Under the pieces are notes generated by a model. It did not search any database. It had not been told where the DNA came from and worked only from the letters and a program-made list of their open reading frames with translations. Positions 8,626 to 43,585 of a DNA stretch of 64,000 nt are shown here, piece after piece. Position 1 is the first letter of the stretch, and each line of letters opens with the position of its first letter. Where the stretch lies: the NCBI GenBank assembly GCA_963771175.1, contig CAVYSY010000033.1:352001-416000 (forward strand), written 5' to 3'. The translations under genes and the position numbers were made by a program. The DNA is from an uncultured delta proteobacterium. GTDB taxonomy: Bacteria > Myxococcota > Myxococcia > Myxococcales > Myxococcaceae.

Positions 8626-9075
8626 CTACTCGGGCACCAGACCCAGCTCGCGCCGGACTCGCTCGGCGGACTCGTGCAGACCCGAGAGCTCCAGCCGGTT
8701 GAGGGCCCACGCCAGCGCCTGACCCTCACGCGAAGCGATGCTGTACGGATAGGACGGCCGCTTCAGATGGAAGACGACGCCCAGCGACAGCCGGAGCACG
8801 GGACCGGGAGCGATATAGGCGATGCCGAGCACCGTCCGTCGAAAGAGCTCATCATGCTCCCGGAACCAGTCCACCTGACGTTGGCGCTGCTCGGTTGACA
8901 TCTTGCCAGCCCGGCACAGGTCGGTGATGACGACGTGGGGTTCCTCGCGGCGCAGGAAGCGAAGCCCCTCGGTGAGGTAGTCCTCGAACTCCTGGTTCGA
9001 CGGATCTCCCACGAAGCGGCTGATGAGCAGCGGCCAGTGCGAATCATCGAAAACGCAGAACCGGGAGGCGCTCAT
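8626..9075 (-). CDS. Small hypothetical protein, possibly STAS/SEC14-like
   Basis: Clean 149-aa alpha/beta ORF (WPLLI...VITDL...GIAYI) 14 bp downstream of the kinase gene. Confidence 0.6.
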   Translation of the reverse strand: MSASRFCVFDDSHWPLLISRFVGDPSNQEFEDYLTEGLRFLRREEPHVVITDLCRAGKMSTEQRQRQVDWFREHDELFRRTVLGIAYIAPGPVLRLSLGVVFHLKRPSYPYSIASREGQALAWALNRLELSGLHESAERVRRELGLVPE

Positions 9076-9089
9076 GGAAGGGGCAGGAG

Positions 9090-11099
9090 CTAGGGCGAGT
9101 CCGCCCCCACGCGCAACGTGAGGCGCTCGCGCAGACGCGTGGGCTTGCCCGGAGTGACCTCCACGGTCCAGCGCTCGGCCTCATACCCTGGCGCCCTCGC
9201 CATCACGTGCCACACGCCCGGCGTGGGTTTCGGGTCCGTATAGGGGCTGGGAACCTTGCGCTGCCGCCCTTTGGGGTCCGTCAGCTCCAACGTGGTGCGG
9301 CGCGCCGGCCGTACCTCGATGACGAGGCTCTCGTCTCGCGCCACGGAGCGCTCGGCGCGGGTCGGCTGGGCGACGGGCGAGTCTCCTGGCCGTGGCACCG
9401 GGGCTGCCGCCTCCTTCTGCTTCGGCGCGGGCGGCTCCGGCGCGGGCTGCTCCGGCTGCTGCTTCGGCGCGGGTTGGCTCGGGGGCTCCGTGTGGCCTGC
9501 CCGCAGCCCCAGACCCAGCATCACCGCCATCCCCGCGAGCGCGAAGAGCAGGGCCAACAGCCACGCCCTGCGCGCCGAACGGGGCTGAGCGTCCGCCTGC
9601 CCCGGCTGCGGAGCGGGCTTCGCCGGCACGGAGCGCGCACGAGCCGGGGCGGGCGCACTCTTCTCGATGGGCGCAGGGGGAGCCGGCTCGGGGAGCTGGG
9701 TCGCCAGGGCCGGGGCTTGCCTGGCCTCGACGACGCGCGCGGCAGGTTGCTGAATGGGTTCCGGCTCGGGCTCACGCACGGGAGCAGCCGGCGCCTGCCT
9801 GGCCACCACGACGGGCTCCGGTTCAGGCTCCTGTTCGAGCTCACGCACGGGAACGGCCGGGGGAGCCACCACGACAGGCGCGACGGGCTCCGGCTCGGGT
9901 TCCGGTTCGGGCTGCGTGAAGATAGGAGCGGCCGGAGTCAACGGGGCCGCCGCGACAGGGGCGGCGGGTGTCCTCACTGGGACGGGCTCGGGTCGCCAGC
10001 CTTCCGTGCGCGGGGCCCGCCGCATCGCCTCGACCAGGGCGGAGGAGACCCGCACGGGCTCGGGTTGCTGGAGCGCCGCGACGGGAACGGAAGGTGCGCG
10101 CGGTTCTGAAATCTGGGGACTCTTCGCCACCTGGAAGAGCGATGCCCCCGGAGCAGCGGGGACCTGGGTGGGCGTCGCCTCCCGAGACATGGAGACGGGG
10201 GCGGGCGTCGCCTCCCGAGGCACGGGCGGAGCCGATTGAACGGGAGGCTCGGCCTGCTCGACCGGGGCCTCCGCCACCAGCGCGGCGGCGAACTCCTGGC
10301 ACGAGGCGAAGCGACGCTCCGGGTCCAGGTCCATCGCCCGGTGGATGCTCGCCAGCAGTCGGCGCTCCAGGCCCGGGTGCGCCACCTCGGGCAGCACGTA
10401 CTCGGCCCGGACGACCTTCTCCATGATGTTGAAGTCGCTCTCGCCCTGGAAGCACACGTGCCCGGTGGCCAGCTCGTAGAGGGTGACTCCGAGCGAGAAG
10501 ATGTCCGAGCGCACCGTAACGTCCCGGGCCCCGCGGATCTGCTCCGGGCTCATGTACTGCGGGGTGCCCATGCGAACGCCCGTGCGCGTCGTCGGCCTGC
10601 CCTCGGAGTTGGCCACCTTGGCGATGCCGAAGTCGAGGATGCGCACCACCCGCCGGCCGTGGCTCTGCTCCAGGAAGATGTTCGAGGGCTTGAGGTCCCG
10701 GTGGATGACGCCCTGCGCGTGCGCGAAGCCCACCCCCGCCAGCACATGCAGGAAGATGTCGCGCACCTCGTCCGGAGCCGGAGGCTGCTGTGCCCGGGCA
10801 AGGTACTTGTCGAGCGACTCGCCCTCCAGGTAGTCCATCACCAGGCCCGCGACGCCGGGCGCCGCGACCACGTCCGTGATGCCCAGGATGTTCGGGTGCT
10901 TCAGGCGCGCCTGGATGCGGCCCTCGTCCAGGAAGCGGGCCCGAATCTCCGCGTTCACCACCAGCTCTGGGTCGAGCACCTTGAGCGCATGGACGCTGCC
11001 GAGGGCCACATGGTGCACCTTGTAGACGCGCGCCATCCCGCCGCCCCCCAGCTCGCGCTCCACCTCGTAGCGCTCGACCACGTCACCCGGGCTCAACAT
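9090..11099 (-). CDS. Hanks-type Ser/Thr kinase with Pro-rich linker, TM helix and PEGA-like C-terminus
   Basis: LGGGGMARVY, ALKVL, HRDLKPSN, DFGIAK, GTPQYMSPE; TM AWLLALLFALAGMAVMLGLGL; ARAPGYE. Confidence 0.93.
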   Translation of the reverse strand: MLSPGDVVERYEVERELGGGGMARVYKVHHVALGSVHALKVLDPELVVNAEIRARFLDEGRIQARLKHPNILGITDVVAAPGVAGLVMDYLEGESLDKYLARAQQPPAPDEVRDIFLHVLAGVGFAHAQGVIHRDLKPSNIFLEQSHGRRVVRILDFGIAKVANSEGRPTTRTGVRMGTPQYMSPEQIRGARDVTVRSDIFSLGVTLYELATGHVCFQGESDFNIMEKVVRAEYVLPEVAHPGLERRLLASIHRAMDLDPERRFASCQEFAAALVAEAPVEQAEPPVQSAPPVPREATPAPVSMSREATPTQVPAAPGASLFQVAKSPQISEPRAPSVPVAALQQPEPVRVSSALVEAMRRAPRTEGWRPEPVPVRTPAAPVAAAPLTPAAPIFTQPEPEPEPEPVAPVVVAPPAVPVRELEQEPEPEPVVVARQAPAAPVREPEPEPIQQPAARVVEARQAPALATQLPEPAPPAPIEKSAPAPARARSVPAKPAPQPGQADAQPRSARRAWLLALLFALAGMAVMLGLGLRAGHTEPPSQPAPKQQPEQPAPEPPAPKQKEAAAPVPRPGDSPVAQPTRAERSVARDESLVIEVRPARRTTLELTDPKGRQRKVPSPYTDPKPTPGVWHVMARAPGYEAERWTVEVTPGKPTRLRERLTLRVGADSP

Positions 11100-11126: not shown

Positions 11127-12575
11127 CTAGAAGAACTCCCAGGAGCCTATCTGTTTCCCGAGCCTGCGCTTGGACGCGATGCGGTAGGCGTCGATGCCCA
11201 GCAGGACGTTCACGACGAACAGGCCGCACATCCCCGTATCCATCGGGCCCACCAGCAGGCAGCACAGCAGGAGGAGGCCGATGCCCTTGAGCACCTGCCC
11301 GTTGTACATCTGACCGACCCCCGGGATGCAGAACAGACCCAGCAGCAGGGCGATCGCGGGCGAGGACGTGGAACCGGGGACGACCGCCTGCGCGGGAGGG
11401 AGCGCGGGACGGGGCGCCCTCGCGGGAGCGGGCGGGGCGCGGGGCGCGAGGAGGTCCGGCGGCGGCTCGCGGTGCTTCACCGCGGGCGGTGCGGCCACTG
11501 GGAGCGCATCGTTCGCCGGAGCCGCCACGGGCACCGGAGGCACCGGGGGCGGCGTGGGCTCCAGACGCGCCGTGTTCATCGCCGGCCTGTTGCCATTCGA
11601 AACGTACGTCGCCGCGAAGGCGGACTCCTGGGCGGGCTCGGATGCGGGCGCGACGTGCCCCACCTGGGTCTTCGCGAAGGAGCGGGACGGCCTCTCAGGC
11701 ACCGCGGGGTTCGCATCGAGCGCCTGCTCCAGGGCCTCGCGGAAGGCGGCGCAGTCCTGGAAGCGCTCGGACGGCTCCACCGCCAGCGCCTTGCGGATGC
11801 AGCCGGCGATGACGGGCGGCAGGTCGCCCACGACACGATCGGGAGGCTCGTAGGTGCCCTCCACGATGCGCTTCATCGTGTCGTACTCGCTCGACGCGTG
11901 GAAGGCGACCTGCCCGGTGGCGGCCTCGTAGAGAATGGCGCCCAGCGCGAAGATGTCGGTGCGCGCATCCACCTCGGCGGCCCCGCGAATCTGCTCCGGA
12001 CTCATGTACAGCAGCGTGCCCATGCGGGCGCCGGCCTGGGTGCGCGCCTTGCCGTCCGCGTTCTCCCCCACCAGCACCTTGGCGATGCCGAAGTCCGTCA
12101 CCTTGGGCTGGAGCCGGCCCCGGCTGTCCTTGCCGATGATGATGTTGTCCGGCTTGAGATCCCTGTGAACGATGTTGTGCCGGTGCGCCTCCTCCACGGC
12201 GTCCAGCACCGGCAGGAAGACCTCCAGGAGCAGCTTGGGCTCCAGTCCCCTGCCCCGGCAGAACTCGCCGAGCGTGGGGCCCTCGATGTAGTCCATCACC
12301 AGCCCCGCCACCGGGGTGGTGACGATCTCCGTCACCTGGACGATGTGGGGATGGCGCAGGTGCGCCTGGATGCGGCCCTCGGCGAGGAAGCGCCCGCGGA
12401 TGTCGTCGCTCCGCGACAGGTCCGCGTTGAGCACCTTCAAGGCGTGCGTGCTGTGCAACCCCAGGTGGCGCACCTGGTACACGGCGGCCATGCCGCCCTG
12501 CCCGAGCAGCCGGACCACCTCGTAGCGACCATCCAGCTGCGTTCCGGGCTGGAGGAGGTTCATGTCACCGCTCAT
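11127..12575 (-). CDS. Hanks-type Ser/Thr kinase with TM2-like C-terminal membrane domain
   Basis: LGQGGMAAVY, HRDLKPDN, DFGIAK, YMSPE; C-terminal IPGVGQMYNGQVLKG followed by hydrophobic helices. Confidence 0.93.
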   Translation of the reverse strand: MSGDMNLLQPGTQLDGRYEVVRLLGQGGMAAVYQVRHLGLHSTHALKVLNADLSRSDDIRGRFLAEGRIQAHLRHPHIVQVTEIVTTPVAGLVMDYIEGPTLGEFCRGRGLEPKLLLEVFLPVLDAVEEAHRHNIVHRDLKPDNIIIGKDSRGRLQPKVTDFGIAKVLVGENADGKARTQAGARMGTLLYMSPEQIRGAAEVDARTDIFALGAILYEAATGQVAFHASSEYDTMKRIVEGTYEPPDRVVGDLPPVIAGCIRKALAVEPSERFQDCAAFREALEQALDANPAVPERPSRSFAKTQVGHVAPASEPAQESAFAATYVSNGNRPAMNTARLEPTPPPVPPVPVAAPANDALPVAAPPAVKHREPPPDLLAPRAPPAPARAPRPALPPAQAVVPGSTSSPAIALLLGLFCIPGVGQMYNGQVLKGIGLLLLCCLLVGPMDTGMCGLFVVNVLLGIDAYRIASKRRLGKQIGSWEFF

Positions 12576-12605: not shown

Positions 12606-15383
12606 CTACCCCAATAGCCCGAGCACACCGGACTTGTCCGGACCGAACCCGAGCACCTCCTGGGGCGTACACTCAGGACACCCGTTGGCGCACTTGCAGT
12701 TGGCCAGGATGGCCCGCACCCACTTGAAGGTGTCGTCGATGAGCGCCAGGTCCAGGGCCTCGGCCACGCCCATGCCTTGGAGGTGCCGGTCCACCACGAC
12801 GATGCCGGCCGGGGCCTCGGGGAACATGCCCGGCCCCACCGGCACCACGTCCATGTCCTCGTCGCTGGAGAGCAGGTGCGCCACCAGCACCCCGTCCGCC
12901 GAGCGCGCCAGGTGGAAGAGGACGTTGGGCGTGGTGGCCGCGGGGAAGAAGACGCCGCGCACGCGGGTGCGGTAACGGCAGCTCACCGCGCCCACGTCCA
13001 CCCGCCCCGGTTTGCCCACCTGGGAGTAGCCGGTGACGCTCTCCACCACCGTCGCGTCCAGGGTACACACCTGGTACACGCACCGCCCCGTGCGCACCGT
13101 CTGGGGAGACTCCACCACGGTGGCGGACTCGAACTGGATTCGGAGCTGCGGCCGGGTGAGGGGCCGGTCGTTGGGCACCGGCTTCACGCGCAGCTCGTTG
13201 CGCTTGGTGTCCAGCGAGTGGAGCGGCACCTCGTAGCGCGTGTCTCCCACGGCGAACACGCGGCCCGGGTAGTAGCGCGTCTCCACGAGCAGCCGGTCCA
13301 CCTCGGTGAGGAGCTGGCCACTGTGCACGTCGAGGATGCGCACCACCTGCTCGCTGACGGTGCGCCGCAGCGGGTTGACGACCTCGGCCAGCACGGGCGG
13401 GACGACGGGGCTGCGCACGGGCTCGCGGCCCTGGGCGAGCCGCACCACGTGCCGCTCGGGGCGGAACTTCGGCCCCAGCACCTGCTCCACTCGCGAGCGG
13501 CCGAAGATGGCGGCCAGGGACTCCACGTCCTGCGTCCCCTCCTGCATGGCGGCCTTGAGGTGGGCCGAGGCCAGCGCCCCGTTGTGGTAGCCCACGAGCG
13601 GGCGCGGCGGCATCAGCATGCCGTTGCGGGCGAGCCCATCCAGGTTGCCGTCCCGGGTGAGGAAGCGCGTCACCGGGTTGTCGGAGAGGCCCCACAACGC
13701 GTCATGGGACTGCCCGTCCGCCAGCGGCACCCGGTGAGGGAGCGCCCGGTACGCGGCCACCAGCCATGCCTCGTCCAGCGAGCCCACCGAGGCCACGCCG
13801 AAGAGGGACACGTCGCGCACGAAGCGCAGCTCGCCGCCCCAGAAGTCCACGGCCTTGAGGTCGAAGGCACCGCTCGGGTCGCCCACGGCGGCGGGCAGCT
13901 TCGCCCCCACCACCGGCTCCAGCGCCCGACGCACCCAGGGAGTGCCGGGCTGGACGCGAAAGCCCTCGGCCACACGCCAGACGCGCACGGGGGCGGCGGC
14001 GCGCGGGGTGAAGGGCACCTCGCGGACGGAGATGCCCGGGAACATCTGCTCCACCAATCCACGCGTGCCCGCGCCGCCCACACCCGTGGCCAGCACGTTC
14101 CACCGCGCTCCGGCGGCCGACAGCGCCAGCTCCAGCCGCCGAAGGGTGAACATGCGGTGCGTGGAGACGAGCGGCGTCCCCCGGTCCACCCGCGACAGCA
14201 CCACCAGCCCCACGGAGCGGGCCCACAGGCGGCCGCAGCCCCCGCGCGTCTCGGCGAGCGCGCGGATGCCTCCGGCGGACAGTTGCTCCACGTCCAGGAA
14301 GACGGCGGCCGGCATGCGGTTGCCCGCGAAGGCCTCGCGCAGCGCCGCCTCGCCGGCCAGCAGCGGCCCCGAGGGCCACGAGCCACTGCGCGAGATGGCC
14401 TCGAGCACCGCGTCACGCAGCGCCTCCGGCTCGTCGCTGATGACGAGGCACGGCAGGCCTTCACGCTGGAGCGCGAGCAGCACGCTGGCGGTGAGGAAGT
14501 GGCGCTCCGTCGGGTCCGGCAGGTCTCCCACCAGCCAGCCCTGTTGCGGCGAGCCCCACGCACTGGCGATCTCCTCCAGCGCCCGAGGCGGAGCCCCGGT
14601 GGCACCGGAGTCCCTCCACGCGGCGGCGCTCCAGGCCGGAGCCGGCTCCGCGTTGCCCGTGCCCTGCGTCGCGAGCAGCGGGCGCGCGTTCGCGTCGAGG
14701 GCCCCCAGCTTCCGCCAGAGCGCCGGGACGTCCGCGCGTACGGGAGCGGGAACCTGAGGCTGGGGGGCCTCCTGCTTCACGGGCGGGGGCGCGAGGCGCT
14801 CGGCGCGCGTCCACACGGCGAGCGCCATGCACAGCATGGGCAGCACGGCGGCCACGTCCAGCAGCATGCGACCCGGGCGGTCCTGCCGCCACGCCCCGTC
14901 CACCACGATGAGGGCCAGCACCGGCACCGCCAGCAGCACCAGCGCCAGCGGGTCCGCGAGAGGGACGCGGAAGGGCGTGCCGAACTTGTGGTTCGCCTCG
15001 CGGAACGCGAGCACCGCCACCCCGAGGAAGAAGGCAGCGGCATGGAGCAGGACCAGCAGCACGACCGCGTCCACGGGGAACCAGGTCATCGAGGTCGCGC
15101 CGCGGGTCAGCGCCTGCTCGAGCCCGGCGAGCCACCCGAGCGGCCCGCCCTGCATGGTGGAACTGGCGGCTTCCACCAGCCGGGTGACGAGCACCAGGGC
15201 CAGGGTGACGAGGACGGCCTTGCCCACGGGAAGGGCGGCACGGCGCCAGCGGGAGTTGGGGCCGGGGCCCACCACCACGGCCGCCAGCGACCAGGCCAGC
15301 ACGGGCGTGACGAGCACGAGGCCCCACACCGCCAGGTACGCGAACGTCGCGAGGACGGCCGGATGCGGGAGTTGCAAGGTCAT
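12606..15383 (-). CDS. Membrane-anchored degenerate SF2 helicase-like protein with C-terminal DUF1998-type Cys cluster
   Basis: About five N-terminal TM helices; YPGRVF segment; VVVDRHLQGMG...CKCANGCPEC; no intact Walker A or DExH; ATGA overlap with the upstream gene. Confidence 0.65.
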   Translation of the reverse strand: MTLQLPHPAVLATFAYLAVWGLVLVTPVLAWSLAAVVVGPGPNSRWRRAALPVGKAVLVTLALVLVTRLVEAASSTMQGGPLGWLAGLEQALTRGATSMTWFPVDAVVLLVLLHAAAFFLGVAVLAFREANHKFGTPFRVPLADPLALVLLAVPVLALIVVDGAWRQDRPGRMLLDVAAVLPMLCMALAVWTRAERLAPPPVKQEAPQPQVPAPVRADVPALWRKLGALDANARPLLATQGTGNAEPAPAWSAAAWRDSGATGAPPRALEEIASAWGSPQQGWLVGDLPDPTERHFLTASVLLALQREGLPCLVISDEPEALRDAVLEAISRSGSWPSGPLLAGEAALREAFAGNRMPAAVFLDVEQLSAGGIRALAETRGGCGRLWARSVGLVVLSRVDRGTPLVSTHRMFTLRRLELALSAAGARWNVLATGVGGAGTRGLVEQMFPGISVREVPFTPRAAAPVRVWRVAEGFRVQPGTPWVRRALEPVVGAKLPAAVGDPSGAFDLKAVDFWGGELRFVRDVSLFGVASVGSLDEAWLVAAYRALPHRVPLADGQSHDALWGLSDNPVTRFLTRDGNLDGLARNGMLMPPRPLVGYHNGALASAHLKAAMQEGTQDVESLAAIFGRSRVEQVLGPKFRPERHVVRLAQGREPVRSPVVPPVLAEVVNPLRRTVSEQVVRILDVHSGQLLTEVDRLLVETRYYPGRVFAVGDTRYEVPLHSLDTKRNELRVKPVPNDRPLTRPQLRIQFESATVVESPQTVRTGRCVYQVCTLDATVVESVTGYSQVGKPGRVDVGAVSCRYRTRVRGVFFPAATTPNVLFHLARSADGVLVAHLLSSDEDMDVVPVGPGMFPEAPAGIVVVDRHLQGMGVAEALDLALIDDTFKWVRAILANCKCANGCPECTPQEVLGFGPDKSGVLGLLG

Positions 15384-21002: not shown

Positions 21003-21042
21003 GGCTCCCCCTCCGAGTCATCTCCACTGCATGTAGAGAGTA

Positions 21043-33753: not shown

Positions 33754-33871
33754 ATGAGGGGATGCCTGAGGGGATAGACGTTACCGCGCCAACGCGAGGG
33801 GTGACGGCGGCGAGCACGCTGGTACACCTGGTCGCGCTGTGCCAGCAGTTGAGCCTCGCGGCCGGACGCGC

Positions 33872-34567: not shown

Positions 34568-34887
34568 GGAGCTGCTCCTTCGAAAGGGGTTCAGACCTAC
34601 GACGAACGGTCCCGGCGGGGATCGACATGGCCGCGAAGATTTTTTCCCGGTCCGCGGCAGTGCAGGGCCGACACGAGCCGGCTCCACAGCTCGCCGCCGG
34701 TACGGCCATCATCGGCGGAGAGTGAGCGTGTCCATGCACGGTAGCCAGGCCCAGCCCGGGCCTCGTCGTTGTCGAACCTTCATGAATGTTCCCCCTTGAG
34801 GAGCCAGAGGCTCCCGCCGCGAAGCTCTACACGGCCCTGCCCGCCTTCAAGCGACCTGCACCGGGGGGAGAGGCGAGCGGCAATGGG

Positions 34888-35315
34888 GCATAGGAAAGCC
34901 CAGCACTCATCACGTACACTGCTCATCCCTGGACCTCCTTCGAAACAGCCGTCACGGGCCCGCGGGCGCAGCGGGTCCGTAGAGCTCGAGCTCCGAGACA
35001 GAGTACGAGTTGTCTTCCCACTCCAGCACCCCCATGTGGCACACGGCTGACCTGGCCGCACTGGCTTGAGGAGAGCGGCAGGGAGTTGTGGGTCGTGGCT
35101 GCGCCAAACTCAACACCACGCCTGCTGGGGTAGCCCCTGCGCCGGGGCTCGCCTGGCAGGCCGCGTGGGCAGTCCCAGGTGCTCCACAATGGCGCGCCCC
35201 CCGCTGGGTGCTGTCTCGTACGCCAGCACTCGCCGCCTGCCTCCACACCTCACGCAGGCTCACGCCTCCCTCCCCTGGCACGAAGACTCCGTCCGGTACC
35301 AGCGCATGGGTGACC
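34888..35315 (-). mobile_element. Internally deleted IS91-family remnant, inverted relative to the 23 kb copy
   Basis: HALVPDGVF joined to CVRCGGRRRVLAY...IVEHLGLP; downstream CTTTCCTATGC oriIS-like end. Confidence 0.6.
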
Positions 35316-35402
35316 CGCCAAGCTCTTACTCGACTTCCCTGAAGGGGGTTGGCACACGCCCCCACCCACTCGGGAGAGGTCCCCGGGCAGGCGAGCACTC
35401 GC

Positions 35403-37481
35403 TCAACTCCACTTCATGTAGAGGTTGCCCACCCGGTACACCATGTTGGGCGTGTACCCGAGCGCCAGTTCCTCGGCCGGTACGGGCTCCCACTTCCCGG
35501 TGCGCTGCACCTTTCGCTCGAGCCCTCCCGCGGTGACGAAGCGCGTGGAGCCACCGGGCCCCGCTTCGAGCACGAGCACGGCCGCACGCGGAGAGCGCAC
35601 GAAGTCGCCTCCCGCGTTCAGGCACATCCGGGCGTTGCGGTAGAAACCACGGGTGCCACCGGGAGTCTCGCGCAGAGTGAGGGCCGAGGCGCGCTTGAGC
35701 CCCATCTCCGAGCCCGCCACGTAGACGCTGGCGGCCGGGTCGAAGTCGCTCGGCCGGACGAAGCCCATGACGACCCAGCCGAAGAAGAGCATGCCCCCCG
35801 CCAGGGCGAGCCAGGGCCACCAGCAGCGCAGCCAGCCCGTCTCCGACACCCTCACGAGTGCCGGGACCGTCACGGCGGCGGCGGCGTAGTGCGGGTGGCC
35901 GGCGGCGAAGAGCACCCCGATTCCCGGCGGGGCGAGCTGTCCGCAGCACCCCTCGGCGACGAAGCAGATTTCATACTTGAGCGGCTGTCCCTTGCGGCCA
36001 TTGCCCAGGTCCGCCTCGGAGCCCGCGACGGGCGCGCAGGAGAGCAGGCCTCCCTCCACAATCCCCTGCGCGGTGCAGGAGATGGGGACACGGTCCGCGT
36101 TGGTGGAGCGAGACAGGTCCACCACCGAGCACCGGCGCGTCTCGCTTCGCTCTCCCCGCCACTCGCCGAAGTCGAGCGAGGCCGGATTGGGCACCAGGGC
36201 GAGGTCGAGGAAGCCCTCCACCTGCACGGCCCGGCGCGCGCTCTGCTCCATCCACGCGTTGCGGAAGGTCACCGACACCGGCGTGGACGCGCCGTCCCGC
36301 GAGGGCTCCGAGGGCGTCCAGTCCGCCACGAAGCGCCCTCCCCCGGTGTGGCGCAGGGGCACCTCCTGGCCGTCGATGGTGGCCACTGCCGCGAAGCCGT
36401 CCGCCTGGAAGAAGGTCTCGTCGTCGAAGGTCTTCCCGCGGAAGAGCAGCCGTGCGTCGAGCTGCACCGGCTCGCCTACTCGCGCGGTGGGAGGCACGGC
36501 TAGCGAGGCCTCGAGGTCGTACCGAAGGATGAGGCCGTAATCGATGTCGCCCGACCCCTTCGGCAGCGACAGCGTCCAGCGACTGCGCGCGTCCGGCGAG
36601 TTGGGCGCACGAAAGACCTGGTAGTTGCGGTGCGGGGGCCGGCACAGCTTGGGCGCGTTGGCGTAACGGAGATTCGGCGGGCAGCCGTTGTCACCCGAGG
36701 CCTGGGACGGGACGTTGCCCTGGGGCCCCTCCAGCTTCGCGGTATAGGCGGGCCCGGGCGAGGCGGACGCCGTGGCCACCAGCACCTCCACCACGTACTT
36801 GCCCACCTCGAAAGTCTTCGACTGGCCGGGGGACAGCGAGCCCGTCTCCGGCCGTGAGCCGAGGACGCGGGCATAGCCCCGGGTGAAGGCGCCAATCACC
36901 TCGCGCGGCGTCTGGACGAAGACGAGGTCCTGCGGGTTGCGCGCCAGCGGACGGAGGAACTGCTCGCCCGTCTGGCGGACCTCGTCGCTGCCGAAGAGGC
37001 CGATGACCAGCGTCTCGAAGTCGGCCGACTCGGAGAGGCCAAGGGACCGGGGACCCTCGGAGGGGTCCCTCAGGTCCTCGGGGATGCCGTCGGTGAAGAA
37101 GAGGAACAGCCGGTTCTGGAGCGCCGAGCTTCGCAGCCGGTTGCCCGCCTCTTCCAGCGGGCGGCGGAAGAAGGTGCCGTTCGCGTAGGGCAGCGCGCGA
37201 ATGTCGTCCGCGCTCTGGGCCGGGCGAGGCGGGGCGTCCTTGCCATCACCAAAGGCCAGCACGCTGACCCGGTCGGCCGAGCCACGTGCCAGTCCCTCGA
37301 CGACGAGCGTGCCGAGCACCGCGGCGCGCTCGGGGTCATTGGGAGGCACCCGGCGCCCCGTCGTCTGGTCCCGGGCCTCCACGCCCATGGAGCACGAGTT
37401 GTCGAGGATGAGGACGATCTCGTTGCCACCGCCGGCCGCGCCGGTGAGGAGCAGGGGCAGGACGAGCTGCGCGAACGTCAT
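35403..37481 (-). CDS. vWA-domain membrane protein
   Basis: Signal peptide, MIDAS ILDNSCSM, NGT, FFTDG; Cys-rich segment, TM helix and C-terminal tail of about 115 aa. Confidence 0.85.
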   Translation of the reverse strand: MTFAQLVLPLLLTGAAGGGNEIVLILDNSCSMGVEARDQTTGRRVPPNDPERAAVLGTLVVEGLARGSADRVSVLAFGDGKDAPPRPAQSADDIRALPYANGTFFRRPLEEAGNRLRSSALQNRLFLFFTDGIPEDLRDPSEGPRSLGLSESADFETLVIGLFGSDEVRQTGEQFLRPLARNPQDLVFVQTPREVIGAFTRGYARVLGSRPETGSLSPGQSKTFEVGKYVVEVLVATASASPGPAYTAKLEGPQGNVPSQASGDNGCPPNLRYANAPKLCRPPHRNYQVFRAPNSPDARSRWTLSLPKGSGDIDYGLILRYDLEASLAVPPTARVGEPVQLDARLLFRGKTFDDETFFQADGFAAVATIDGQEVPLRHTGGGRFVADWTPSEPSRDGASTPVSVTFRNAWMEQSARRAVQVEGFLDLALVPNPASLDFGEWRGERSETRRCSVVDLSRSTNADRVPISCTAQGIVEGGLLSCAPVAGSEADLGNGRKGQPLKYEICFVAEGCCGQLAPPGIGVLFAAGHPHYAAAAVTVPALVRVSETGWLRCWWPWLALAGGMLFFGWVVMGFVRPSDFDPAASVYVAGSEMGLKRASALTLRETPGGTRGFYRNARMCLNAGGDFVRSPRAAVLVLEAGPGGSTRFVTAGGLERKVQRTGKWEPVPAEELALGYTPNMVYRVGNLYMKWS

Positions 37482-39664
37482 CTAGAGCTCCACCTTGAAG
37501 TACGTGCCCCCGGCCCGGTACAGCACCGAGGGGGAAGGAACGTGTCCCTGGGCCAGGTCCGTCACCGGCTCCCACTTGAGGGTGCGGCGATCCTGCTGCT
37601 CCAGGGGGCCACTGCCCTGTCAGCACCACACCGGCACCGCGGGTGGCGCGAAGCACGATGGGCGCGTTCCGGATGCGGCCATTCACCTCGCCATCGCCGT
37701 GCAGGCCCAGCCGGGCATCCCGGAAGAAGCCGGGACTGCTGCCGGGGCAGTCTTGGAGGAGGATGGCGGCGGCCTGTCGCATGCCGCGATCGCTCCCGGC
37801 CACGCGGATGGACGTGCCGGGCGGGAAGCGCGAGGGCTGGGTGAAGCCGGCGAGCAGCACACCGAAGCCGAGCAGCGCCAGCGAGGGCCACACCCACGCG
37901 CCATGGCAGCCGAGGAAGCCCTGGCCCTCGACCTTCCAGCGCAGACGCACCGTCTTCTCCTGGGCCTTGAACTCGGGGGTGAGCGGCACCACGCGCAGCA
38001 CGGCCGAGTCCGGCGACACGTCCCCGGCGCACCGAGGCACCTCCAGGCAGATGTCGAGTCGGCGCTCCCTCGGGTCCAACGCATCGATGCCGAGCGAGGG
38101 CAACAAGCCGCGCACGTCCGCCTGTCCCAGCGCATTGAGGAAGCTGAGCACCGGGCGAGCCTGGCAGCCGTCGAGCCCCTCGGCGCGCAACTCCCAGCGG
38201 TGCTCCTCGGCGCCCTGGGAGCGGCTGAAGTCGAGCTTCTGGCAGGCCTCCGTCACGGCGGTGCCCGCGGCGATGGTGCCGAAGTCCAGCGTCTCCGGCA
38301 GCTCCAGCCTGAGCTGGGGGCGCACCCGCACTTCGTGCGCGGGCATCGAGAATGGGCCCTCGCGGCGTCTGGAACACGACCGACCAGCTCGCGGCCTGGG
38401 GCTCGGCGTAGGTGACGCTGAACTCGTACCGGTCATCCGGTCGGGGCGGCCCGCTGTAGCGCACCTCGCCGGTGTCCACCATGCGGGCCTCCACCTTGGG
38501 GTCCGCGAGGAGCGCGTCCACCTGCTGGCGACCCGTACCCGGTGCCGGGCGGAGGAGCCGAACCGTGCCCCGGCAGGGAAGCCCGGCGTAGCAGGTGCGC
38601 GGCAGCTCCGAGGTGTCGAAGCCGAGCCCGAGGTCGCTCACCGTGGCCGTGACTTCCTCCGTGGGGCACACCACGCGATCGCCCGCGCGGCCGCCCGCGC
38701 TGATGCGTACCTCGCGCGGCTTGGGGGAGGCGGGTGGCGTCCATGCGGCCGAGAGCGAGCCATCGGCGGGAATCGTCCCCGGCTTCTCCCCTTCCACCTG
38801 GACAGTGAACGCCAGCGAGAGTCCCGCGGGTGGCGAAGTCACGGGCACCTGCCCCGCCGCATCGAAGAGTCTCGCGCTCAGCAGGGTGGACTGTCCGGCC
38901 ACGAGCGCCTCATGCACGGTGGGCTGCACCACGCGCGCCCGGTAGCTGCACACCTCCACCTTCAGACTCTGGGCCTCGGAGGCCGCCGCACGGAGCTGCT
39001 CGTTCTGGGCGAGTGGCGGCGCCATGGGGACGAACTCGATACGCAAGGAGCTGGAGGGCGGAAGGGAGAACCCGGCCGACACGGTGCCGTCGGGTTGCAC
39101 GGTGCCTCGATGCTCGGAGGTCTGGCCATTCGCGTCGGTGACGCGGAAGGTGCCGCCGGTGATGCGGCGCAGCGCCCCGTGCTCATCGCGAACCGCTCCC
39201 ACCACCGTCACCTCATCCCCGGCGGTGTACGGCCCCGGGGAGATGCGCTCCACCCGAGCGTCGAGTTGCACGGGCGGAGGCGGCGGAGGGGGCGTGACGG
39301 GCTTGCCGTCGATGACGTGCGCCACCAGGTTGTCCGCGCCGTGCTTCTCCCCGTAGAGCCGCGCGCACTCGTACGGCTCCGCGCGCCGGTAGGTCCCCGA
39401 AGAGCGCGAGAGGAACTTCGGAATGCAGGTGGAGTCCTCCTCGTCGTAGCAGACGAAGCACTCCTGACCGTTGGTGACCCAGCAGTGGTAGTGCCACTTG
39501 GAGTGCATCGCGCGTACGGCCGGCATGTCGCACGCGGCCACCACGTTCGGCGGAGTCCCCTCATACCCTCCAACGCAGTAGGTGTCCCCTTCCTGCGCCC
39601 GAGCAGACGTGGCCAGCAGGAACGACACAACGGCGAGCAGCGCTGGGAGCGCGCGGGCCATCAT
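37482..39664 (-). CDS. Secreted Cys-rich/Ig-like membrane protein with two apparent frameshifts (about 38350 and 37615)
   Basis: Signal peptide MMARALPALLAVVSFLLATSARA; pieced together from ORFs 37562..40186 and 37336..38436 plus a third frame ending GGTYFKVEL* directly before the vWA ATG. Confidence 0.7.
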
Positions 39665-40773
39665 TTCCCTCCGTCGGGAGACGGCTGTCCACCTACGGTG
39701 GGCGGTACCGGAGCCTGCTCGGGAGAGGAGGAAGCGCCACCACTCGTGGCCCTCAGCCCCAAGGCGAGGCCCACGCCCAGTGCCAGCACACCCGTCGCGA
39801 GCAGCCACCACAGGGGAACCCGGCGCCCGGATTTCCCCGTGGGTGCGACGGTCTCGGACACGGGCGGCGAAGCGGACTCGACCGTGCGCTGCTCGGGCCT
39901 CGGCGCGGCCTGTGTTGGTGCCACGGAAACAGGCGTCGGGGGCACCACCACCGAGGCCAGGGGCATCCCGTCCGGCAGCGTCTCCCGACGTCGCTCCTGG
40001 GGCTCCTGCACCACGCGCGGCACCTCCGGCTGACCCGCCACGAGGAGGATGACCGTGATGTTGTCGGCGCCTCCGCGCTCGTTGGCGATCTGGATGAGCC
40101 GCGTCACCGCGTCCTGATAGTCGCGGCCCTCGATGAGCGGGTACAGCTCGTGGTCCTCGATGAAGTCGTACAGCCCGTCGCTGCACAGCAGCACCACGTC
40201 ACCGGACTTCAGCTCCAGCGGCTCCGTCCAGACCTCGGGCTTGAAACTCTTCTGGACTCCCGGGCTTCCCCCCAGCGCCTGCACGAGTACGTGCGCGTCC
40301 GGGTGTTGCCTCGCCTCCTCGGGCGTGAGGATGCCGTGGCTGACCATCTGCGCGACCCTCGTGTGGTCTCGCGTGCGGTCGATCAGCGCGCCGGCTCGGA
40401 ACTGGTAGAGGCGGCTGTCACCCACCCAGCCGACGTAGCAGCGCCCCTCCAGCACCCAGCCGATGACGCCCGTCGTCCCCATGCCCTCCACGCCTCGAGT
40501 GAGCGAGGTCTCGACCACGGCCTGGTTGGCCTCGACGAACGCCTGATAGAGGGCGCGGGGCGGGTTCTCGGGCGAGCTGGCGGAGATGACCTCGACGATG
40601 CGATCGCTGGCCACCTGGCTGGCCACCTCACCGGCCTCGTGGCCACCCATGCCGTCACAGACGACGAGCAGCCGCGAGCCATCCGGCGGGGCGGCGACGC
40701 GGAAGGAGTCCTCGTTCTGGGCGCGCTGGCGCCCCACGTCGGAGCTCCCGTGGATGTAGAGCGGGAGGCTCAT
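39661..40773 (-). CDS. PP2C-family Ser/Thr phosphatase with C-terminal TM helix
   Basis: DVGRQRAQNED, VCDGMGGH, VGDSR, LCSDGL, GGADNIT. Confidence 0.95.
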   Translation of the reverse strand: MSLPLYIHGSSDVGRQRAQNEDSFRVAAPPDGSRLLVVCDGMGGHEAGEVASQVASDRIVEVISASSPENPPRALYQAFVEANQAVVETSLTRGVEGMGTTGVIGWVLEGRCYVGWVGDSRLYQFRAGALIDRTRDHTRVAQMVSHGILTPEEARQHPDAHVLVQALGGSPGVQKSFKPEVWTEPLELKSGDVVLLCSDGLYDFIEDHELYPLIEGRDYQDAVTRLIQIANERGGADNITVILLVAGQPEVPRVVQEPQERRRETLPDGMPLASVVVPPTPVSVAPTQAAPRPEQRTVESASPPVSETVAPTGKSGRRVPLWWLLATGVLALGVGLALGLRATSGGASSSPEQAPVPPTVGGQPSPDGGK

Positions 40774-42836
40774 TCGTCATCTCCCCTCGCGGGTGCGTAG
40801 AGGGTCCTGGCCTTCGCCCGAGGCGCCTCGGCGGCTGGCTGCGGTGCGTCGGGAGCAACCGGAGGCGCGGCGACGATGGGCGCACCGGCCGGAGGCGGCT
40901 CGGCGGAGGGCTGGAGCCCGGGCTGCTCCAGTGTGAGTTCCAGGTGCTGCGACAGGCGGATGGTCTGACCGGACTTCACCTGGACGCGCTCGCCCGGGTT
41001 CAGGCGGCGTCCGTCCACGAAGGTGCCGTTGGTGGAGTTCTCGTCCTTGACGAAGACGTTGCCCGCCTTGAAGAGCTGCACGGTCGCGTGGTGTCCGCTG
41101 AGCTGGGGCAAGTCCACGGCGAGGTCCATCTCTCCCGACCGTGCGCCAATGGTGAACGAGGACTTGTGGACCCGGTAGAACGGCTCGAGGCCAGGAGGCC
41201 CCCGGGTCACCATCAGCCGGGTCTCCGGCAGCGTGGCGAAGGGGTCCTTCCACACCACGGGAGCAGCCGGAGGAGGCTCGGGCTGTGCGGGGGGCGGCTC
41301 GGGCGCGGGGGGAGCCGCGGGCTTCGCCTCCTGAACGGGAGCCGGAGCAGGTGTCGAGCGGCTCCGGGACAACAGCACGATGAGCACGACCAACAGGAGC
41401 AGCCCCAGGCCCAGGAGCAACAGCACGAGCAGCCACCAAGGCCACACGCGAGGAGCCTGCACGGAGACGGGTCCCCCCATTCCACCACCGGGCTGCATCG
41501 CCGGCCCGGGAACGCCCGTCCCCGCTCCGGGTTGTGTCGAGGCACCTGCGCTCCCCGCCGGAGGGCCTGGCCGCGAGCCCATCCCAGGACCCGGTCGCGT
41601 CGTGGAGCCGGAGGAGCCCGGCATGGTGCCGGGAGCAGTGGTGGACCCGGAGGTGCTCGGGGAGGTGCCGTGCCCGGTGGGAGATCCGGAGGTACTCGGG
41701 GAGGTGCCGTGCGCGGTGGCTGACCCGGAGGAGCCCGGTGTGGAACCAGAGGGTCGCGACGATCCGGAAGTCGTGCCCTTCGCGCTCCCTGGCTGTGTCG
41801 GGGAGGGCCCGGTGGCGACCGAGGAGGGACAGGCGATGGTCGCCCGGCCCTCGGCGCTCTGCCGGAAGGAGACGGGATCGCTCCAGGCGGTGCGAGCGCG
41901 ACCCGAGAGGGACTCCACGAAGAGCCGGTCCGAGGTCTGCCCGCGCTTCACACCGCAGAAGGCCACGTCCAACCAGTAGATGTGCTCCAGCGAGCGCACC
42001 AGCCCCCCGAGCGCCTGCCGGGCATCCACGTCCTCCACCTGGATGTAGCGGCCACCGGTGCCCGCGGCGAGCTGGGACATCTCGTCGAGTCGCTGGGCGA
42101 TGCCCTTGCCCCTGGTTCCATCACTGAAGACCACCACGTGGAGGCGCACACCCAGCTCGCGTGCATCACCAACGAGCTTCTTCAGGCTGAGCGCGCTCGA
42201 CTCCTCGCCGGCATCGGTGAAGACGATGACCTCGCGCGAGCCACCCTTGGAGAGCGGCTGCTTGCGAGCGGCCTCGCGCATCGCGTCCTGGATGTAGAAC
42301 TTGAGCCGGGTGACGAGCTGGTGCGTTCCGAGCCGCTGGACCTTGTCCAGGCACGCCTCGAGACCGGCGGCGGAGGTCTCCTGACAGTGGGTGGCCTTGC
42401 TCTTCCCGAAGGTCATGACCGCCACGGTGTGGTTCCGTGGACGGGGACCGAGTGCTCCCGCGTAGGCCTTCGCGAGCTCGAAGGCCTGTGGCCAGTGCGA
42501 GGAGAAGGACCCGGACTGGTCGAAGGCGAGGATCGTGTAGCTCCCCTCCCCGGTGTCGGCCAGCCGCTGGAGCGCGGTGACCTGCGCGCCGGCCTGGCCC
42601 ACGGCGACGCGGAAGCGCTCCGGAGAGGCACCGGCCGCCCGCAGCTCCTTCTGGAGGGTGGGGTCGGTGACCTCGAACTGGAGCCGCATCTGCCCGGCGG
42701 ACGCGGGCGGCGTCGCGAGCACGGTGAGACCATTGTCGGCGGCGCTCGCGGGAGCCCCCACGAGGAGCACGGCGAGCAGGCTCGCCATCATGATGGCTGT
42801 GCGATGGATGTGCATCCCCCCTCCAGAGGAGCTCAC
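40770..42836 (-). CDS. vWA - repeat linker - TM - FHA domain protein
   Basis: AFDQSGS MIDAS, VFTDAG, TM WWLLVLLLLGLGLLLLVVLIVLL, FHA LSGHH...DENSTNGTFVDG. Confidence 0.85.
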   Translation of the reverse strand: MSSSGGGMHIHRTAIMMASLLAVLLVGAPASAADNGLTVLATPPASAGQMRLQFEVTDPTLQKELRAAGASPERFRVAVGQAGAQVTALQRLADTGEGSYTILAFDQSGSFSSHWPQAFELAKAYAGALGPRPRNHTVAVMTFGKSKATHCQETSAAGLEACLDKVQRLGTHQLVTRLKFYIQDAMREAARKQPLSKGGSREVIVFTDAGEESSALSLKKLVGDARELGVRLHVVVFSDGTRGKGIAQRLDEMSQLAAGTGGRYIQVEDVDARQALGGLVRSLEHIYWLDVAFCGVKRGQTSDRLFVESLSGRARTAWSDPVSFRQSAEGRATIACPSSVATGPSPTQPGSAKGTTSGSSRPSGSTPGSSGSATAHGTSPSTSGSPTGHGTSPSTSGSTTAPGTMPGSSGSTTRPGPGMGSRPGPPAGSAGASTQPGAGTGVPGPAMQPGGGMGGPVSVQAPRVWPWWLLVLLLLGLGLLLLVVLIVLLSRSRSTPAPAPVQEAKPAAPPAPEPPPAQPEPPPAAPVVWKDPFATLPETRLMVTRGPPGLEPFYRVHKSSFTIGARSGEMDLAVDLPQLSGHHATVQLFKAGNVFVKDENSTNGTFVDGRRLNPGERVQVKSGQTIRLSQHLELTLEQPGLQPSAEPPPAGAPIVAAPPVAPDAPQPAAEAPRAKARTLYAPARGDDE
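41595..41745 (-). repeat. Degenerate 39-bp (13-aa) tandem repeat in the Ser/Gly/Thr/Pro linker
   Basis: SGSATAHGTSPST / SGSPTGHGTSPST / SGSTTAPGTMPGS. Confidence 0.7.
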
Positions 42837-43585
42837 GGGGAACGTCGGGACAGCAGTGACTCGGGCACGATGACGAGCACCAGGGTCATCCCTCCCAGTG
42901 AGAGCACCGCGTGGTTCTGGAGAACGACCTGCTCACCGTGGACGACGGCCCCGTTGACGATGGAGCCGTTGCTGGAGACGTCCATGTACGAGGCGTCCTC
43001 GGCGCGGATGAACAGGAAGGCGTGCTGGCCGCTCACGCGTCCGTCATCGACCACCACGTCGCACTCGGCGTTGCGACCGAGCACGTTGCGCCCGGCGCGC
43101 AGTGGGTGGACGCGCCCGGGGTCGTTGGGGCCGCGGTACTCGAAGAGGGCGCCACGGATGAGGCCCGCGGCCGTCCCCTCGTTGGCGGTCTCCACGATCG
43201 TCCGGGCCTTGGGGCGCGGAGCGGCGGGCGCCGGGGCCGCGGCTGGCGCCGGTGGCATGGCGGCGGGCGCGGGCGCGGCGGCCGGACGGGAGGGCGGAAG
43301 AGATGCGGCGGCGAAGGGGTCGCGAGGATCGAAGGTGGGCCGGGGCGGAGGATTGGCGAAGAAGTCCGCGCTGCGGCGAGGGATGGGCGGAGGAGGCGCC
43401 GCCGCCGGATCCGGCTCGAAGATGGTGTGCCGCTTCTGGTGCGGGTTGGCCGGCTGGGGCGGCGGAGGCGGCGCGGGAGCGCTCTCGGCGACCGTGCCGT
43501 GCTTGGGAGGCGTCAGGTCCAAGCCGCACATGTCGCAATAGGCGGCGCCGACGGCGTTCTCGTTCTGGCAGGAAGGACAGCGCAT
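42833..43585 (-). CDS. Zinc-ribbon plus FHA domain protein
   Basis: CPSC...CDMC; FHA LGRN...VSGQHA...SSNGS; likely start at ATG 43585. Confidence 0.88.
   Translation of the reverse strand: MRCPSCQNENAVGAAYCDMCGLDLTPPKHGTVAESAPAPPPPPQPANPHQKRHTIFEPDPAAAPPPPIPRRSADFFANPPPRPTFDPRDPFAAASLPPSRPAAAPAPAAMPPAPAAAPAPAAPRPKARTIVETANEGTAAGLIRGALFEYRGPNDPGRVHPLRAGRNVLGRNAECDVVVDDGRVSGQHAFLFIRAEDASYMDVSSNGSIVNGAVVHGEQVVLQNHAVLSLGGMTLVLVIVPESLLSRRSP

Follow-up and report, generated by a model that had tools for sequence, protein, structure and literature searches.

FtsZl1 proteins form the most divergent branch of the tubulin/FtsZ superfamily. They were defined by Makarova and Koonin (2010; PMC2875224), whose main text and table report genes for von Willebrand factor A (vWA) domain proteins in most FtsZl1 operons, note kinases, a divergent GTPase and OmpA-like genes, list the unnamed membrane families B1-B9, and predict a membrane-remodelling role for the FtsZl1-vWA operons; the Plesiocystis example in the table has the order vWA, FtsZl1, 903-aa hypothetical protein (aa, amino acids). 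Here we analyse a window of 64,000 nucleotides from the genome of an uncultured member of the Myxococcaceae (assembly GCA_963771175.1, contig CAVYSY010000033.1, positions 352,001 to 416,000 of the forward strand; coordinates below count from the first letter of the window), in which an FtsZl1 gene is found. Comparison with relatives supports the view that two blocks of genes in the window, A and B, form a single conserved locus of ten genes, which inserted DNA has split in this genome.

The locus shares with the operons of the 2010 paper a Tubulin_2-family GTPase roughly 1000 aa long, a gene directly upstream for a membrane vWA protein whose metal ion-dependent adhesion site (MIDAS) is intact, a gene directly downstream for a large membrane protein, and Ser/Thr kinases as frequent companions, and conventional cell division is not the expected role. 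As far as the 2010 text and table go, it differs from them in the following: (i) the downstream membrane protein has, by its model, a tubulin fold without the GTP signature; (ii) a membrane-bound pseudo-helicase derived from MrfA is a constant fourth gene; (iii) FHA readers, a PP2C phosphatase and a second type of receptor are added; (iv) neither a P-loop GTPase nor an OmpA-like gene is found in the window locus. The words helicase, DUF1998 and trypsin are absent from the main text of that paper.

A second related group, reported from Firmicutes and Actinobacteria, comprises the GTPase-centred tubulin/vWA conflict systems (Kaur et al. 2020; PMC7159879). According to the main text, these have coiled-coil tubulin proteins, membrane proteins with external vWA domains, and an active kinase with a zinc ribbon or transmembrane (TM) helices beside a PP2C, and a regulated, cytoskeleton-like assembly has been proposed for them, all of which resembles our locus. 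Unlike the latter, they are defined by a GAP1-N2 GTPase and FNIII-repeat proteins; Pfam searches of 22 open reading frames (ORFs) of the region, which a very divergent GTPase could escape, found no GTPase other than FtsZl1 and no FNIII family. DUF1998 and MrfA have 0 occurrences in the main text of PMC7159879. A third comparison is offered by the Esr pathway of oral Actinobacteria, for which a preprint (10.64898/2026.09.08.750141) presents, in its accessible text, experiments showing that a vWA/kinase/PP2C/FHA set relays a surface signal to a phosphothreonine output. The two have in common that a vWA protein, a Ser/Thr kinase, a PP2C-type phosphatase and an FHA protein are encoded together. 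Unlike our locus, Esr as described there has a MoxR ATPase, beta-propeller surface filaments and a transcriptional output acting on Esx secretion, and it lacks a tubulin-like protein (0 mentions of tubulin or FtsZ in that text).

Our literature searches on FtsZl1, Tubulin_2 and PF13809 found no experimental study, sixteen years after the family was first described (bioRxiv supplements and subscription journals lay outside their reach), and those on DUF1998 with tubulin found no description of a helicase link. The novelty lies in the composition, chiefly in the dead helicase, and in the recognition of the dead tubulin, within a class known since 2010. The initial annotation, made from the sequence alone, had not recognised a characterised system here, which is right for the composition and above all for the dead helicase, but not for the kind, since FtsZl1 with vWA and kinase genes was already described from genome comparisons in the 2010 text.

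Genes were picked by combining the ORF list with third-position G+C and with family and homology searches; with a G+C content of about 70%, long spurious ORFs are plentiful in the window. All reported locus genes lie on the minus strand, at the coordinates of the initial annotation, which fit real gene ends, and its block letters follow the direction of transcription: the high-coordinate block (A) has five genes and the low-coordinate block (B) six, with a 603-aa ORF inside the insertion between them. The features are as follows, in the order of transcription, with the basis of each assignment in brackets.

42833..43585, minus strand: zinc ribbon, Pro-rich linker and FHA domain, cytoplasmic, 250 aa, ATG at 43585 (Pfam)
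40770..42836, minus strand: signal/TM segment, external vWA domain, linker, TM segment and cytoplasmic FHA domain, 688 aa (Pfam)
39661..40773, minus strand: PP2C Ser/Thr phosphatase with C-terminal TM segment, 370 aa (Pfam, NCBIfam)
37482..39664, minus strand: Cys-rich/beta-rich exported receptor with TM segment and cytoplasmic tail, frameshifted (alignment with congeners)
35403..37481, minus strand: predicted exported vWA receptor with beta-rich domains, TM segment and cytoplasmic tail, 692 aa (MIDAS, profile)
21003..35402, no strand: variable insertion between the two halves, 14.4 kb (Pfam and PADLOC contents)
21112-22923, minus strand, within the insertion: optional polytopic membrane ORF, 603 aa, about 9 hydrophobic segments (hydrophobicity)
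17778..21002, minus strand: FtsZl1/Tubulin_2 GTPase without TM segment, 1074 aa (Pfam PF13809)
15380..17776, minus strand: predicted membrane-inserted pseudo-tubulin, 798 aa (AlphaFold2 model and structure search)
12606..15383, minus strand: 5-6 TM helices, MrfA-derived pseudo-helicase and MZB module, 925 aa (Pfam, profile, model)
11127..12575, minus strand: Ser/Thr kinase with C-terminal membrane segments, 482 aa (Pfam Pkinase)
9090..11099, minus strand: Ser/Thr kinase with Pro-rich linker, TM segment and external C-terminal domain, 669 aa (Pfam Pkinase)
8626..9075, minus strand: optional small cytoplasmic protein, 149 aa (no family)

The initial annotation had taken the two blocks for parts of one system. 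Rather than being never adjacent elsewhere and independently distributed, they are adjacent in 17/17 other members of the genus. Among 41 genomes of relatives, including the window's own, FtsZl1 was found in 19 (17/17 of the other genus members, 0/7 of the other genera of the family and 1/16 of the genomes from other families of the order) and the 692-aa protein in 18, again with 17/17 of the other genus members. In all 17 of these the 692-aa gene lies upstream of FtsZl1 on the same strand; the vWA partner expected of an FtsZl1-vWA operon, 14.4 kb away in the window, is thus adjacent in 17/17 congeners. The genes are separated by 18 bp in G014, by 1.0-1.4 kb in five other genomes, by 2.2-2.9 kb in four and by 4.1-5.8 kb in six, with no exact figure for G010, where the two lie on different contigs. 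When the window proteins were searched by tblastn against 40 kb from each of nine congeners, the gene order was constant throughout (FHA, vWA-FHA, PP2C, Cys-rich, 692-aa, gap, FtsZl1, 798-aa, MZB protein, kinase, kinase). Collinearity extends to another genus (G240, FtsZl1 80% identical, 20-bp gap) and to another family (G143, FtsZl1 46% identical, with the sole kinase on the opposite strand), and G039 has the bare four genes for the vWA protein, FtsZl1, an 806-aa protein and a 1038-aa MZB protein, with no kinase, FHA or PP2C. The overlapping or near-abutting genes of the initial annotation are also real: six junctions with a start/stop overlap or a spacer of 0-1 nt were read from the sequence, namely GTGA between the FHA and vWA-FHA genes, ATGA at both ends of the PP2C gene, the TAG of the Cys-rich gene directly abutting the ATG of the 692-aa gene (spacer 0), 1 nt between the FtsZl1 and 798-aa genes, and an ATGA overlap between the 798-aa and MZB genes. 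We propose that the locus is chromosomally fixed and that the 14.4-kb insertion divides it into two transcription units in this genome. As for the 12-gene set initially put forward, the ten core genes are conserved, whereas those for the 603-aa and 149-aa proteins are optional.

The surroundings of the locus are housekeeping genes, with NrfH/NrfA-like cytochromes on one side and a 2-hydroxyacid dehydrogenase fragment, pyruvate kinase, alcohol dehydrogenase and glucokinase on the other, and the same downstream flank gene recurs in 6/9 congeners fetched. Farther away and outside the locus, an ORF of 1877 aa at 56962-62592 on the minus strand is coding-like, with a third-position G+C of 0.92.

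The wider distribution was followed in 79 FtsZl1 loci, obtained by scanning one genome per species with the FtsZl1 alignment, and searched both with profiles built for the three unnamed families and with the window kinase, PP2C, FHA, vWA, Cys-rich and tail segments. The tallies by class of FtsZl1 identity, in which denominators count only loci with enough flank, were as follows.

FtsZl1 46-67% class: vWA receptor 22/25, pseudo-tubulin 20/21, pseudo-helicase 16/16, PP2C 14/18, vWA-FHA 15/18, FHA 14/17, Cys-rich receptor 14/22, same-strand downstream kinase 4/13
FtsZl1 27-40% class: vWA receptor 20/33, pseudo-tubulin 18/35, pseudo-helicase 18/31, PP2C 0/25, vWA-FHA 0/23, FHA 0/21, Cys-rich receptor 0/25, same-strand downstream kinase 5/27

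These tallies indicate that the four-gene core of vWA receptor, FtsZl1, pseudo-tubulin and pseudo-helicase is old and crosses phyla, and that the FHA/PP2C/Cys-rich extension marks one Myxococcota clade. The record titles of the 27-40% class include Nannocystaceae, Polyangia, Sandaracinus and Bradymonadales, and also Thermoanaerobaculia, Terriglobia, Chromatiaceae and Competibacteraceae. Because its loci lack the FHA, PP2C and Cys-rich genes, the phospho-module is an add-on rather than a requirement. In the 46-67% class, a Ser/Thr kinase is present somewhere in 7/11 loci having both flanks; misses of FHA and vWA-FHA in the genus-level class arise because the gap pushes these genes past the 10-kb flank. 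The pseudo-helicase family comprises 96 representative clusters at E <= 0.001 among 1.84 billion (62 at E <= 1e-30) and was found in 19/401 genomes sampled from the phylum; all 5/5 carriers outside the genus have a Tubulin_2 gene, in four on the same contig. Some loci have two or three receptor genes in tandem. As a separate observation, three loci titled Thermoanaerobaculia (L086, L093, L094) have three tandem vWA receptor-like genes upstream of FtsZl1, with a pseudo-helicase-like gene downstream in 2/3 and no pseudo-tubulin match with the profile used.

The same data bear on whether the halves are merely neighbours, that is, a generic FHA/vWA/PP2C/kinase operon next to a separate vWA-FtsZl1 operon with no common function. 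This is the least probable of the readings considered here, and we would give it a very small chance. The core does occur by itself in G039 and throughout the 27-40% class, the junction tolerates insertions of up to 14.4 kb, and the kinase position varies (same-strand downstream in 4/13, sometimes upstream or on the opposite strand); however, from 97% down to 46% FtsZl1 identity the linkage stays collinear, with stops and starts that overlap, and in the genus the locus is broken between the genes of the best-established partners, the vWA receptor and FtsZl1, and not between the signalling genes and the core. Moreover, one cytoplasmic tail is common to the Cys-rich receptor of the signalling half and the core vWA receptor, and the kinases stand at the far end of the FtsZl1 half while the phosphatase and the FHA readers are in the other half.

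The FtsZl1 protein matched PF13809 with an E-value of 3.2e-54 (185 bits against a cut-off of 27), its residues 13-357 covering positions 1-355 of the 356-position profile, and its C-terminal part is long, charged and helical. It is 93-97% identical across the genus. The Gly-rich T1 and T4 loops are invariant in 5/5 sequences spanning 28-100% identity (G16, G18, G19 and G21; S168, A170, G171, G172, T173, G174, S175 and G176). Judged by its sequence, FtsZl1 retains the nucleotide loops, and it is counted, like the two kinases, among the putative live enzymes of the locus.

The 798-aa protein encoded next to it, which matched no family, gave an AlphaFold2 model with a predicted local distance difference test score (pLDDT) of 79.4, computed with 15 sequences. 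Foldseek gave no match at E <= 0.001 for this model; TubZ (E 0.004) and FtsZ (E 0.023) were found with probability 1.00, amid matches to long helices. When the model was re-aligned to the Foldseek candidates with VIA, the top 50 were all tubulin, FtsZ, CetZ, TubZ, BtubA/B or Asgard tubulins (Z 13.3-15.1, 235-271 residues aligned, root-mean-square deviation 4.3-8.5), figures to be read with the caveat that the model exceeds 400 residues and that VIA is a second look at Foldseek's candidates, not an independent search. The aligned range of the model runs from residue 6 to about 785, which implies that helices, a long helix and a TM hairpin (residues 431-457 and 486 to about 510) interrupt the fold. 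By hhalign, the family matched FtsZl1 weakly (probability 12.8%, E 0.0022), with collinear match positions. The T4 signature GGGTGSG is absent from the family: 15 aligned members have VQVPALSxPRA at its position and no Gly-rich loop; the N-domain is nevertheless 93% identical across the genus. The protein is thus predicted to have a membrane-inserted tubulin/FtsZ fold without the GTP signature, and the model and structure search bear out its first label, a degenerate tubulin with TM segments. Complex prediction for FtsZl1 1-400 and pseudo-tubulin 1-300 gave a score of 0.00 against a mark of 0.32, which is evidence neither way.

The 925-aa protein matched Pfam MZB (E 2.4e-7, 31.8 bits against a cut-off of 24.2), and a profile of 37 family members matched Bacillus subtilis MrfA/YprA (6znp) at E 1.1e-12. 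In its AlphaFold2 model (pLDDT 90.8, pTM, the predicted template modelling score, 0.78), six helices at the N-terminus precede two RecA-like domains and the MZB module. Foldseek placed MrfA first (6znp_A, E 5.8e-23 over 811 columns), with the next superfamily 2 helicases at about 1e-6. The whole cytoplasmic part aligns with MrfA, and the four-cysteine zinc module is kept, with C897, C899, C903 and C906 unchanged, or almost so, across 37 sequences. Unlike MrfA, the protein lacks Walker A and DExH motifs, has 5-6 N-terminal membrane helices, and is encoded in an FtsZl1 operon and not in a repair context. Walker A (GxGKT/S) was found in 0/37 family members, in which the P-loop position reads GDLPxPTE, and the DExH column is never DExH (S-R-V-D in the window protein); five DExH/D-like strings elsewhere in the family sequences are at non-homologous places. 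The RecA-like part is 93% identical across the genus. A MrfA fold that lacks these motifs and yet is conserved points to a catalytically dead helicase fold tied to the membrane, and the initial label of a TM pseudo-helicase/DUF1998 protein is confirmed by models, structure searches and motif loss. The most distant homolog (L019:8437-11553, minus strand, in G039) has PPGSGR, a remnant of GSGKT, at the P-loop, and its DExH position reads SGLERY, apparent relics that show descent from an active MrfA-like helicase. DUF1998/MZB proteins also occur in the DISARM defence system, which speaks for an immune function of the locus, a reading taken up below. In one family of the phylum (G059:C92 and G066:C122, L025), the pseudo-helicase match is limited to profile positions 577-875 and belongs to an open frame of 2037-2045 aa that starts some 8 kb downstream of FtsZl1 and may be a fused or expanded form.

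The 692-aa protein had no Pfam match. Its MIDAS residues D27, S29, S31, T103 and D131 are invariant in 6/6 aligned relatives, down to 25% identity, and the profile of its family matched solved vWA proteins, namely Mfa5 (E 1.1e-4) and, more weakly, BatA/BatB-type proteins, NorD and pilus-tip adhesins (E 0.005-0.09). The counterpart in the distant relative G039 matched Pfam VWA at E 1.1e-12. We therefore assign it as the predicted vWA partner of FtsZl1, with an intact MIDAS. The second receptor consists of a signal peptide, a Cys-rich/beta-rich part, a TM segment and a tail; Pfam found no family for it, and its best score in the ESM Atlas was 0.85, to unnamed clusters. The tails of this receptor and of the 692-aa protein are 31-37% identical, the two sharing a conserved cytoplasmic tail of about 115 residues. 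An ESM Atlas lead to an FHA identity of this tail (0.79, rank 3) was rejected, as hhalign of 60 tails with 36 FHA domains gave a probability of 0.15%.

The gene for the Cys-rich receptor is frameshifted in the assembly. Third-position G+C changes frame twice within 37482-39664, while congeners have one open frame, and relative to 4/4 congeners aligned there are two 1-bp insertions, at about 38352 and 37618. The extra base is missing from public contigs at 38352/38353 in 4/4 runs and at 37618 in 3/3 covering runs; these contigs come from four runs of three studies, with 95-99% similar sequence and none from the window's own strain, and the closest run shares 0.53 of sampled words, its contig differing at 54/2401 bases; two RNA runs share only 0.05 of these words. 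The assembly is 81.7% complete in 58 contigs. We lean towards assembly errors rather than a real pseudogene. Just outside the locus, the gene for a NapC/NirT-type cytochrome (about 7960-8600, minus strand) is matched by congener orthologs in two frames, with a switch near 8050; this third apparent 1-bp indel hints at consensus errors in the assembly.

The remaining conserved genes form a phospho-module. The 250-aa protein matched Pfam FHA (E 2.6e-11), Yop-YscD_cpl (1.8e-11) and a zinc ribbon (E 7e-4), and its relatives align from about residue 71 of the long ORF. The 688-aa protein matched VWA (E 4.8e-10) and FHA (E 1.3e-14), with the MIDAS motif DQSGS, hydrophobic segments at 10-28 and 469-487, and a low-complexity linker rich in Ser, Thr, Gly and Pro; it is 63-70% identical among congeners. 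The phosphatase matched PP2C_2 (E 1.4e-14) and NCBIfam Stp1_PP2C (E 1.9e-65, 220.6 bits, slightly below the cut-off of 230) and has its C-terminal TM segment at residues 321-339. Both kinases matched Pkinase: the 482-aa one, with HRDLKPDN and DFG, at E 4.4e-41, and the 669-aa one, with a TM segment at 514-532, at E 4.3e-49. On reading the sequences, HRD and DFG are kept in both kinases and the phosphothreonine-binding residues in both FHA domains. The PpkA-PppA-Fha1 pathway of type VI secretion offers a parallel: there, the assembly of a large envelope machine is gated by a membrane kinase system that has an external vWA domain, together with a PP2C that erases and an FHA protein that reads the marks. 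Unlike that pathway, our locus has no type VI gene among the ORFs scanned (3.9-48.9 kb), and the TagH/VI_FHA model gave only a match at E 4.8e-6, far below its cut-off. The small 149-aa protein had no family in Pfam, PADLOC or NCBIfam scans, and its gene is in 4/9 congeners fetched, at 53-56% identity; an ortholog gave SpoIIAA-like/DUF7793 matches below threshold (E 0.004-0.007), and SpoIIAA-like partner switching was not confirmed but stays a lead.

The reading we prefer, and which we regard as evenly balanced between right and wrong, is that the locus encodes an envelope-spanning assembly, in which receptors and FtsZl1 on a membrane pseudo-tubulin and pseudo-helicase are governed by a kinase/FHA/PP2C switch. 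It builds on gene linkage, domain folds, loss of catalytic motifs and predicted topology; the protein-protein contacts, the direction of signalling, the output, and the roles of writer, eraser, reader, sensor and scaffold are what we infer. Three single-pass proteins would expose putative ligand-binding domains outside, two of them MIDAS-type vWA and one Cys-rich/beta-rich, and their engagement or clustering could be relayed through the membrane to the cytoplasmic face. There, GTP-binding FtsZl1 would assemble on the two dead, membrane-embedded partners encoded directly downstream. The pseudo-tubulin, held by its hairpin, may cap or anchor the polymer like the non-exchanging subunit of tubulin pairs, and the pseudo-helicase behind its 5-6 membrane helices may act as a static scaffold or clamp. 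The two membrane Ser/Thr kinases would write phosphothreonine marks, the two FHA proteins would read them and the membrane PP2C would erase them, which could give the assembly a threshold and a reset. The likeliest output would be local reorganisation or reinforcement of the inner membrane where receptors are engaged, that is, envelope surveillance or remodelling rather than cell division.

External MIDAS-vWA adhesins tied to an internal filament could alternatively form a focal-adhesion-like complex for surface adhesion, motility or development, as in Agl-Glt or integrins, acting in surface growth or fruiting-body development. The part types of the Myxococcus focal-adhesion complex reportedly run parallel, with a vWA adhesin, FHA/zinc-ribbon membrane proteins and a cytoskeletal NTPase with a coiled coil; the carriers known by name are mostly surface-living Myxococcota, and conservation within the genus is high. 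NCBIfam GltG also matched the FHA part weakly (E 1.4e-5, far below cut-off), but this match reflects the shared FHA domain alone, and the locus has no outer-membrane or motor (TolQR/ExbBD-type) gene. Most Myxococcota sampled, in which the locus was not found, also glide and develop, and the core occurs in Chromatiaceae- and Thermoanaerobaculia-labelled loci as well. We consider an adhesion complex very unlikely.

The junction between the two halves deserves separate attention. Its G+C is below that of the surroundings (0.56-0.68; 0.63 at 26-30 kb in the window), and its contents vary: G014 has nothing there, and three genomes have an ORF of about 130 aa. A full-length 603-aa gene occurs in 3/9 congeners fetched (G001, G004, G016) and in one further congener locus, L062, with fragments in G008 and L047. 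Its variable presence and that of the 149-aa gene indicate that neither is a conserved part. The 603-aa ORF is also the one for which the initial labelling went astray: 11 of 12 gene labels hold, but its designation as a degenerate trypsin was not confirmed, as it had no Pfam match at E 0.05 and its N-terminal 230 residues found no protease among solved-structure matches with E up to 10. The mobile-element debris noted between the blocks is real, consisting of an IS3-type transposase remnant at 26558-26953 on the minus strand (rve_2, E 4e-17). Other genes of the window insertion encode an EGF/polysaccharide deacetylase, a HisKA fragment, a glyoxalase, an alpha/beta hydrolase and RibD_C. A Shedu SduA gene lies at 29013-29981 on the plus strand (PADLOC E 5.2e-49; Pfam SduA_C E 3.6e-22), followed by a Methyltransf_32 gene in the stretch to 31257 (plus strand; G+C 0.63-0.64, beside the IS3-type remnant), and the two look like a small acquired defence cargo. 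An Hpt-REC-GGDEF protein is encoded at 31373-33484 on the minus strand (Response_reg E 6e-56 in three stretches, GGDEF E 7e-39) by a gene unrelated to the conserved locus in congeners. In the gap of G017 (L016:567-2230, plus strand), an ORF with a Tox-REase-5 end (E 1.1e-11) directly follows the vWA receptor gene on the operon strand, and DUF2381 genes stand opposite to the operon in the junctions of two congeners (L009:17982-19055, minus strand, E 4e-69; L012:782-1915, plus strand, E 1e-74). A junction inside an operon can thus serve repeatedly as an entry point for cargo, Shedu and toxin genes included.

This cargo, with Shedu in the window and the Tox-REase-5 ORF in G017, is one of several points in favour of a conflict or immune system in the sense of Kaur et al. 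(2020). Such a system would detect an invader or a hostile neighbour (phage, epibiont or contact with a competitor), its NTP-thresholded assembly (NTP, nucleoside triphosphate) would arrest or sacrifice the cell, and the pseudo-helicase would sense incoming nucleic acid at the membrane. Patchiness (19/401 genomes of the phylum, with the four-gene core also in Acidobacteriota- and Gammaproteobacteria-labelled loci), the modular gain of accessory genes and the tandem receptor copies of some loci fit it. So do the grouping of tubulin, membrane vWA and kinase/PP2C themes among conflict systems in the main text of PMC7159879 and the related signalling set that the Esr preprint text places in defence against epibionts. 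On the other hand, PADLOC (PADLOC-DB 2.0.0, 2023 library; 15 proteins scanned) found no specific system among the locus proteins; it matched only the two kinases (generic PD-T4-6/mad6), the PP2C (PDC-M21C, E 1.6e-5, sub-threshold) and the Shedu cargo, while FtsZl1, the pseudo-tubulin, the pseudo-helicase and the receptors had no match. Across the genus, the locus keeps one position, flanked by housekeeping genes, is present in 17/17 other genomes, and has core proteins that are 83-97% identical (56-97% for the whole locus); no external domain is hypervariable, the vWA being 85.5% and the beta-rich part 87% identical in the genus. The flanks of 23 other loci hold one specific defence system, SspAB in L102: among their 115 ORFs, nine had PADLOC matches at E <= 1e-10, seven to widespread-domain models (helicase part, protease, kinase, ABC-type) and two to SspA and SspB of that one locus, so known defence genes are not enriched. 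No effector-type enzyme (nuclease, protease or pore former) is among the conserved ten genes. Taken together, we regard a conflict function as a serious alternative, though a rather doubtful one.

The envelope-spanning assembly has points to answer as well. One of its receptor genes is frameshifted in the assembly, and the tubulin kinship of the 798-aa protein is weak by sequence and rests on one AlphaFold2 model with a pLDDT of 79. FHA, PP2C and the Cys-rich gene are found in 0/21 to 0/25 distant FtsZl1 loci, and the insertion here, with shorter ones in most congeners, indicates that the halves are separable. Finally, above the genus the distribution is patchy (pseudo-helicase family in 19/401 genomes of the phylum, FtsZl1 in 0/7 other genera of the family), a pattern more typical of accessory or conflict genes than of core envelope functions.

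A bolder form of the proposal, which we think unlikely, is a tubulin-based, integrin-like signalling system with MIDAS-vWA receptors, shared tails, a heteromeric polymer of FtsZl1 and dead tubulin, a dead helicase that bears zinc and can still hold on to nucleic acid or a partner protein, and a Ser/Thr phospho-switch. This would amount to a new cytoskeletal organelle of the membrane that serves envelope surveillance or immunity. If this were true, two enzyme families would have been turned into structural parts. The locus provides a defined and unusually complete parts list, with a four-gene core across phyla, two dead but strongly conserved partners, and a set for writing, reading and erasing phosphothreonine in one clade. 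It makes concrete the questions of whether a dead tubulin anchors a live one, what role a helicase fold without ATP use plays, and whether the assembly is phospho-gated. As the carriers include cultured Archangium and Pyxidicoccus strains, genetics may be possible.

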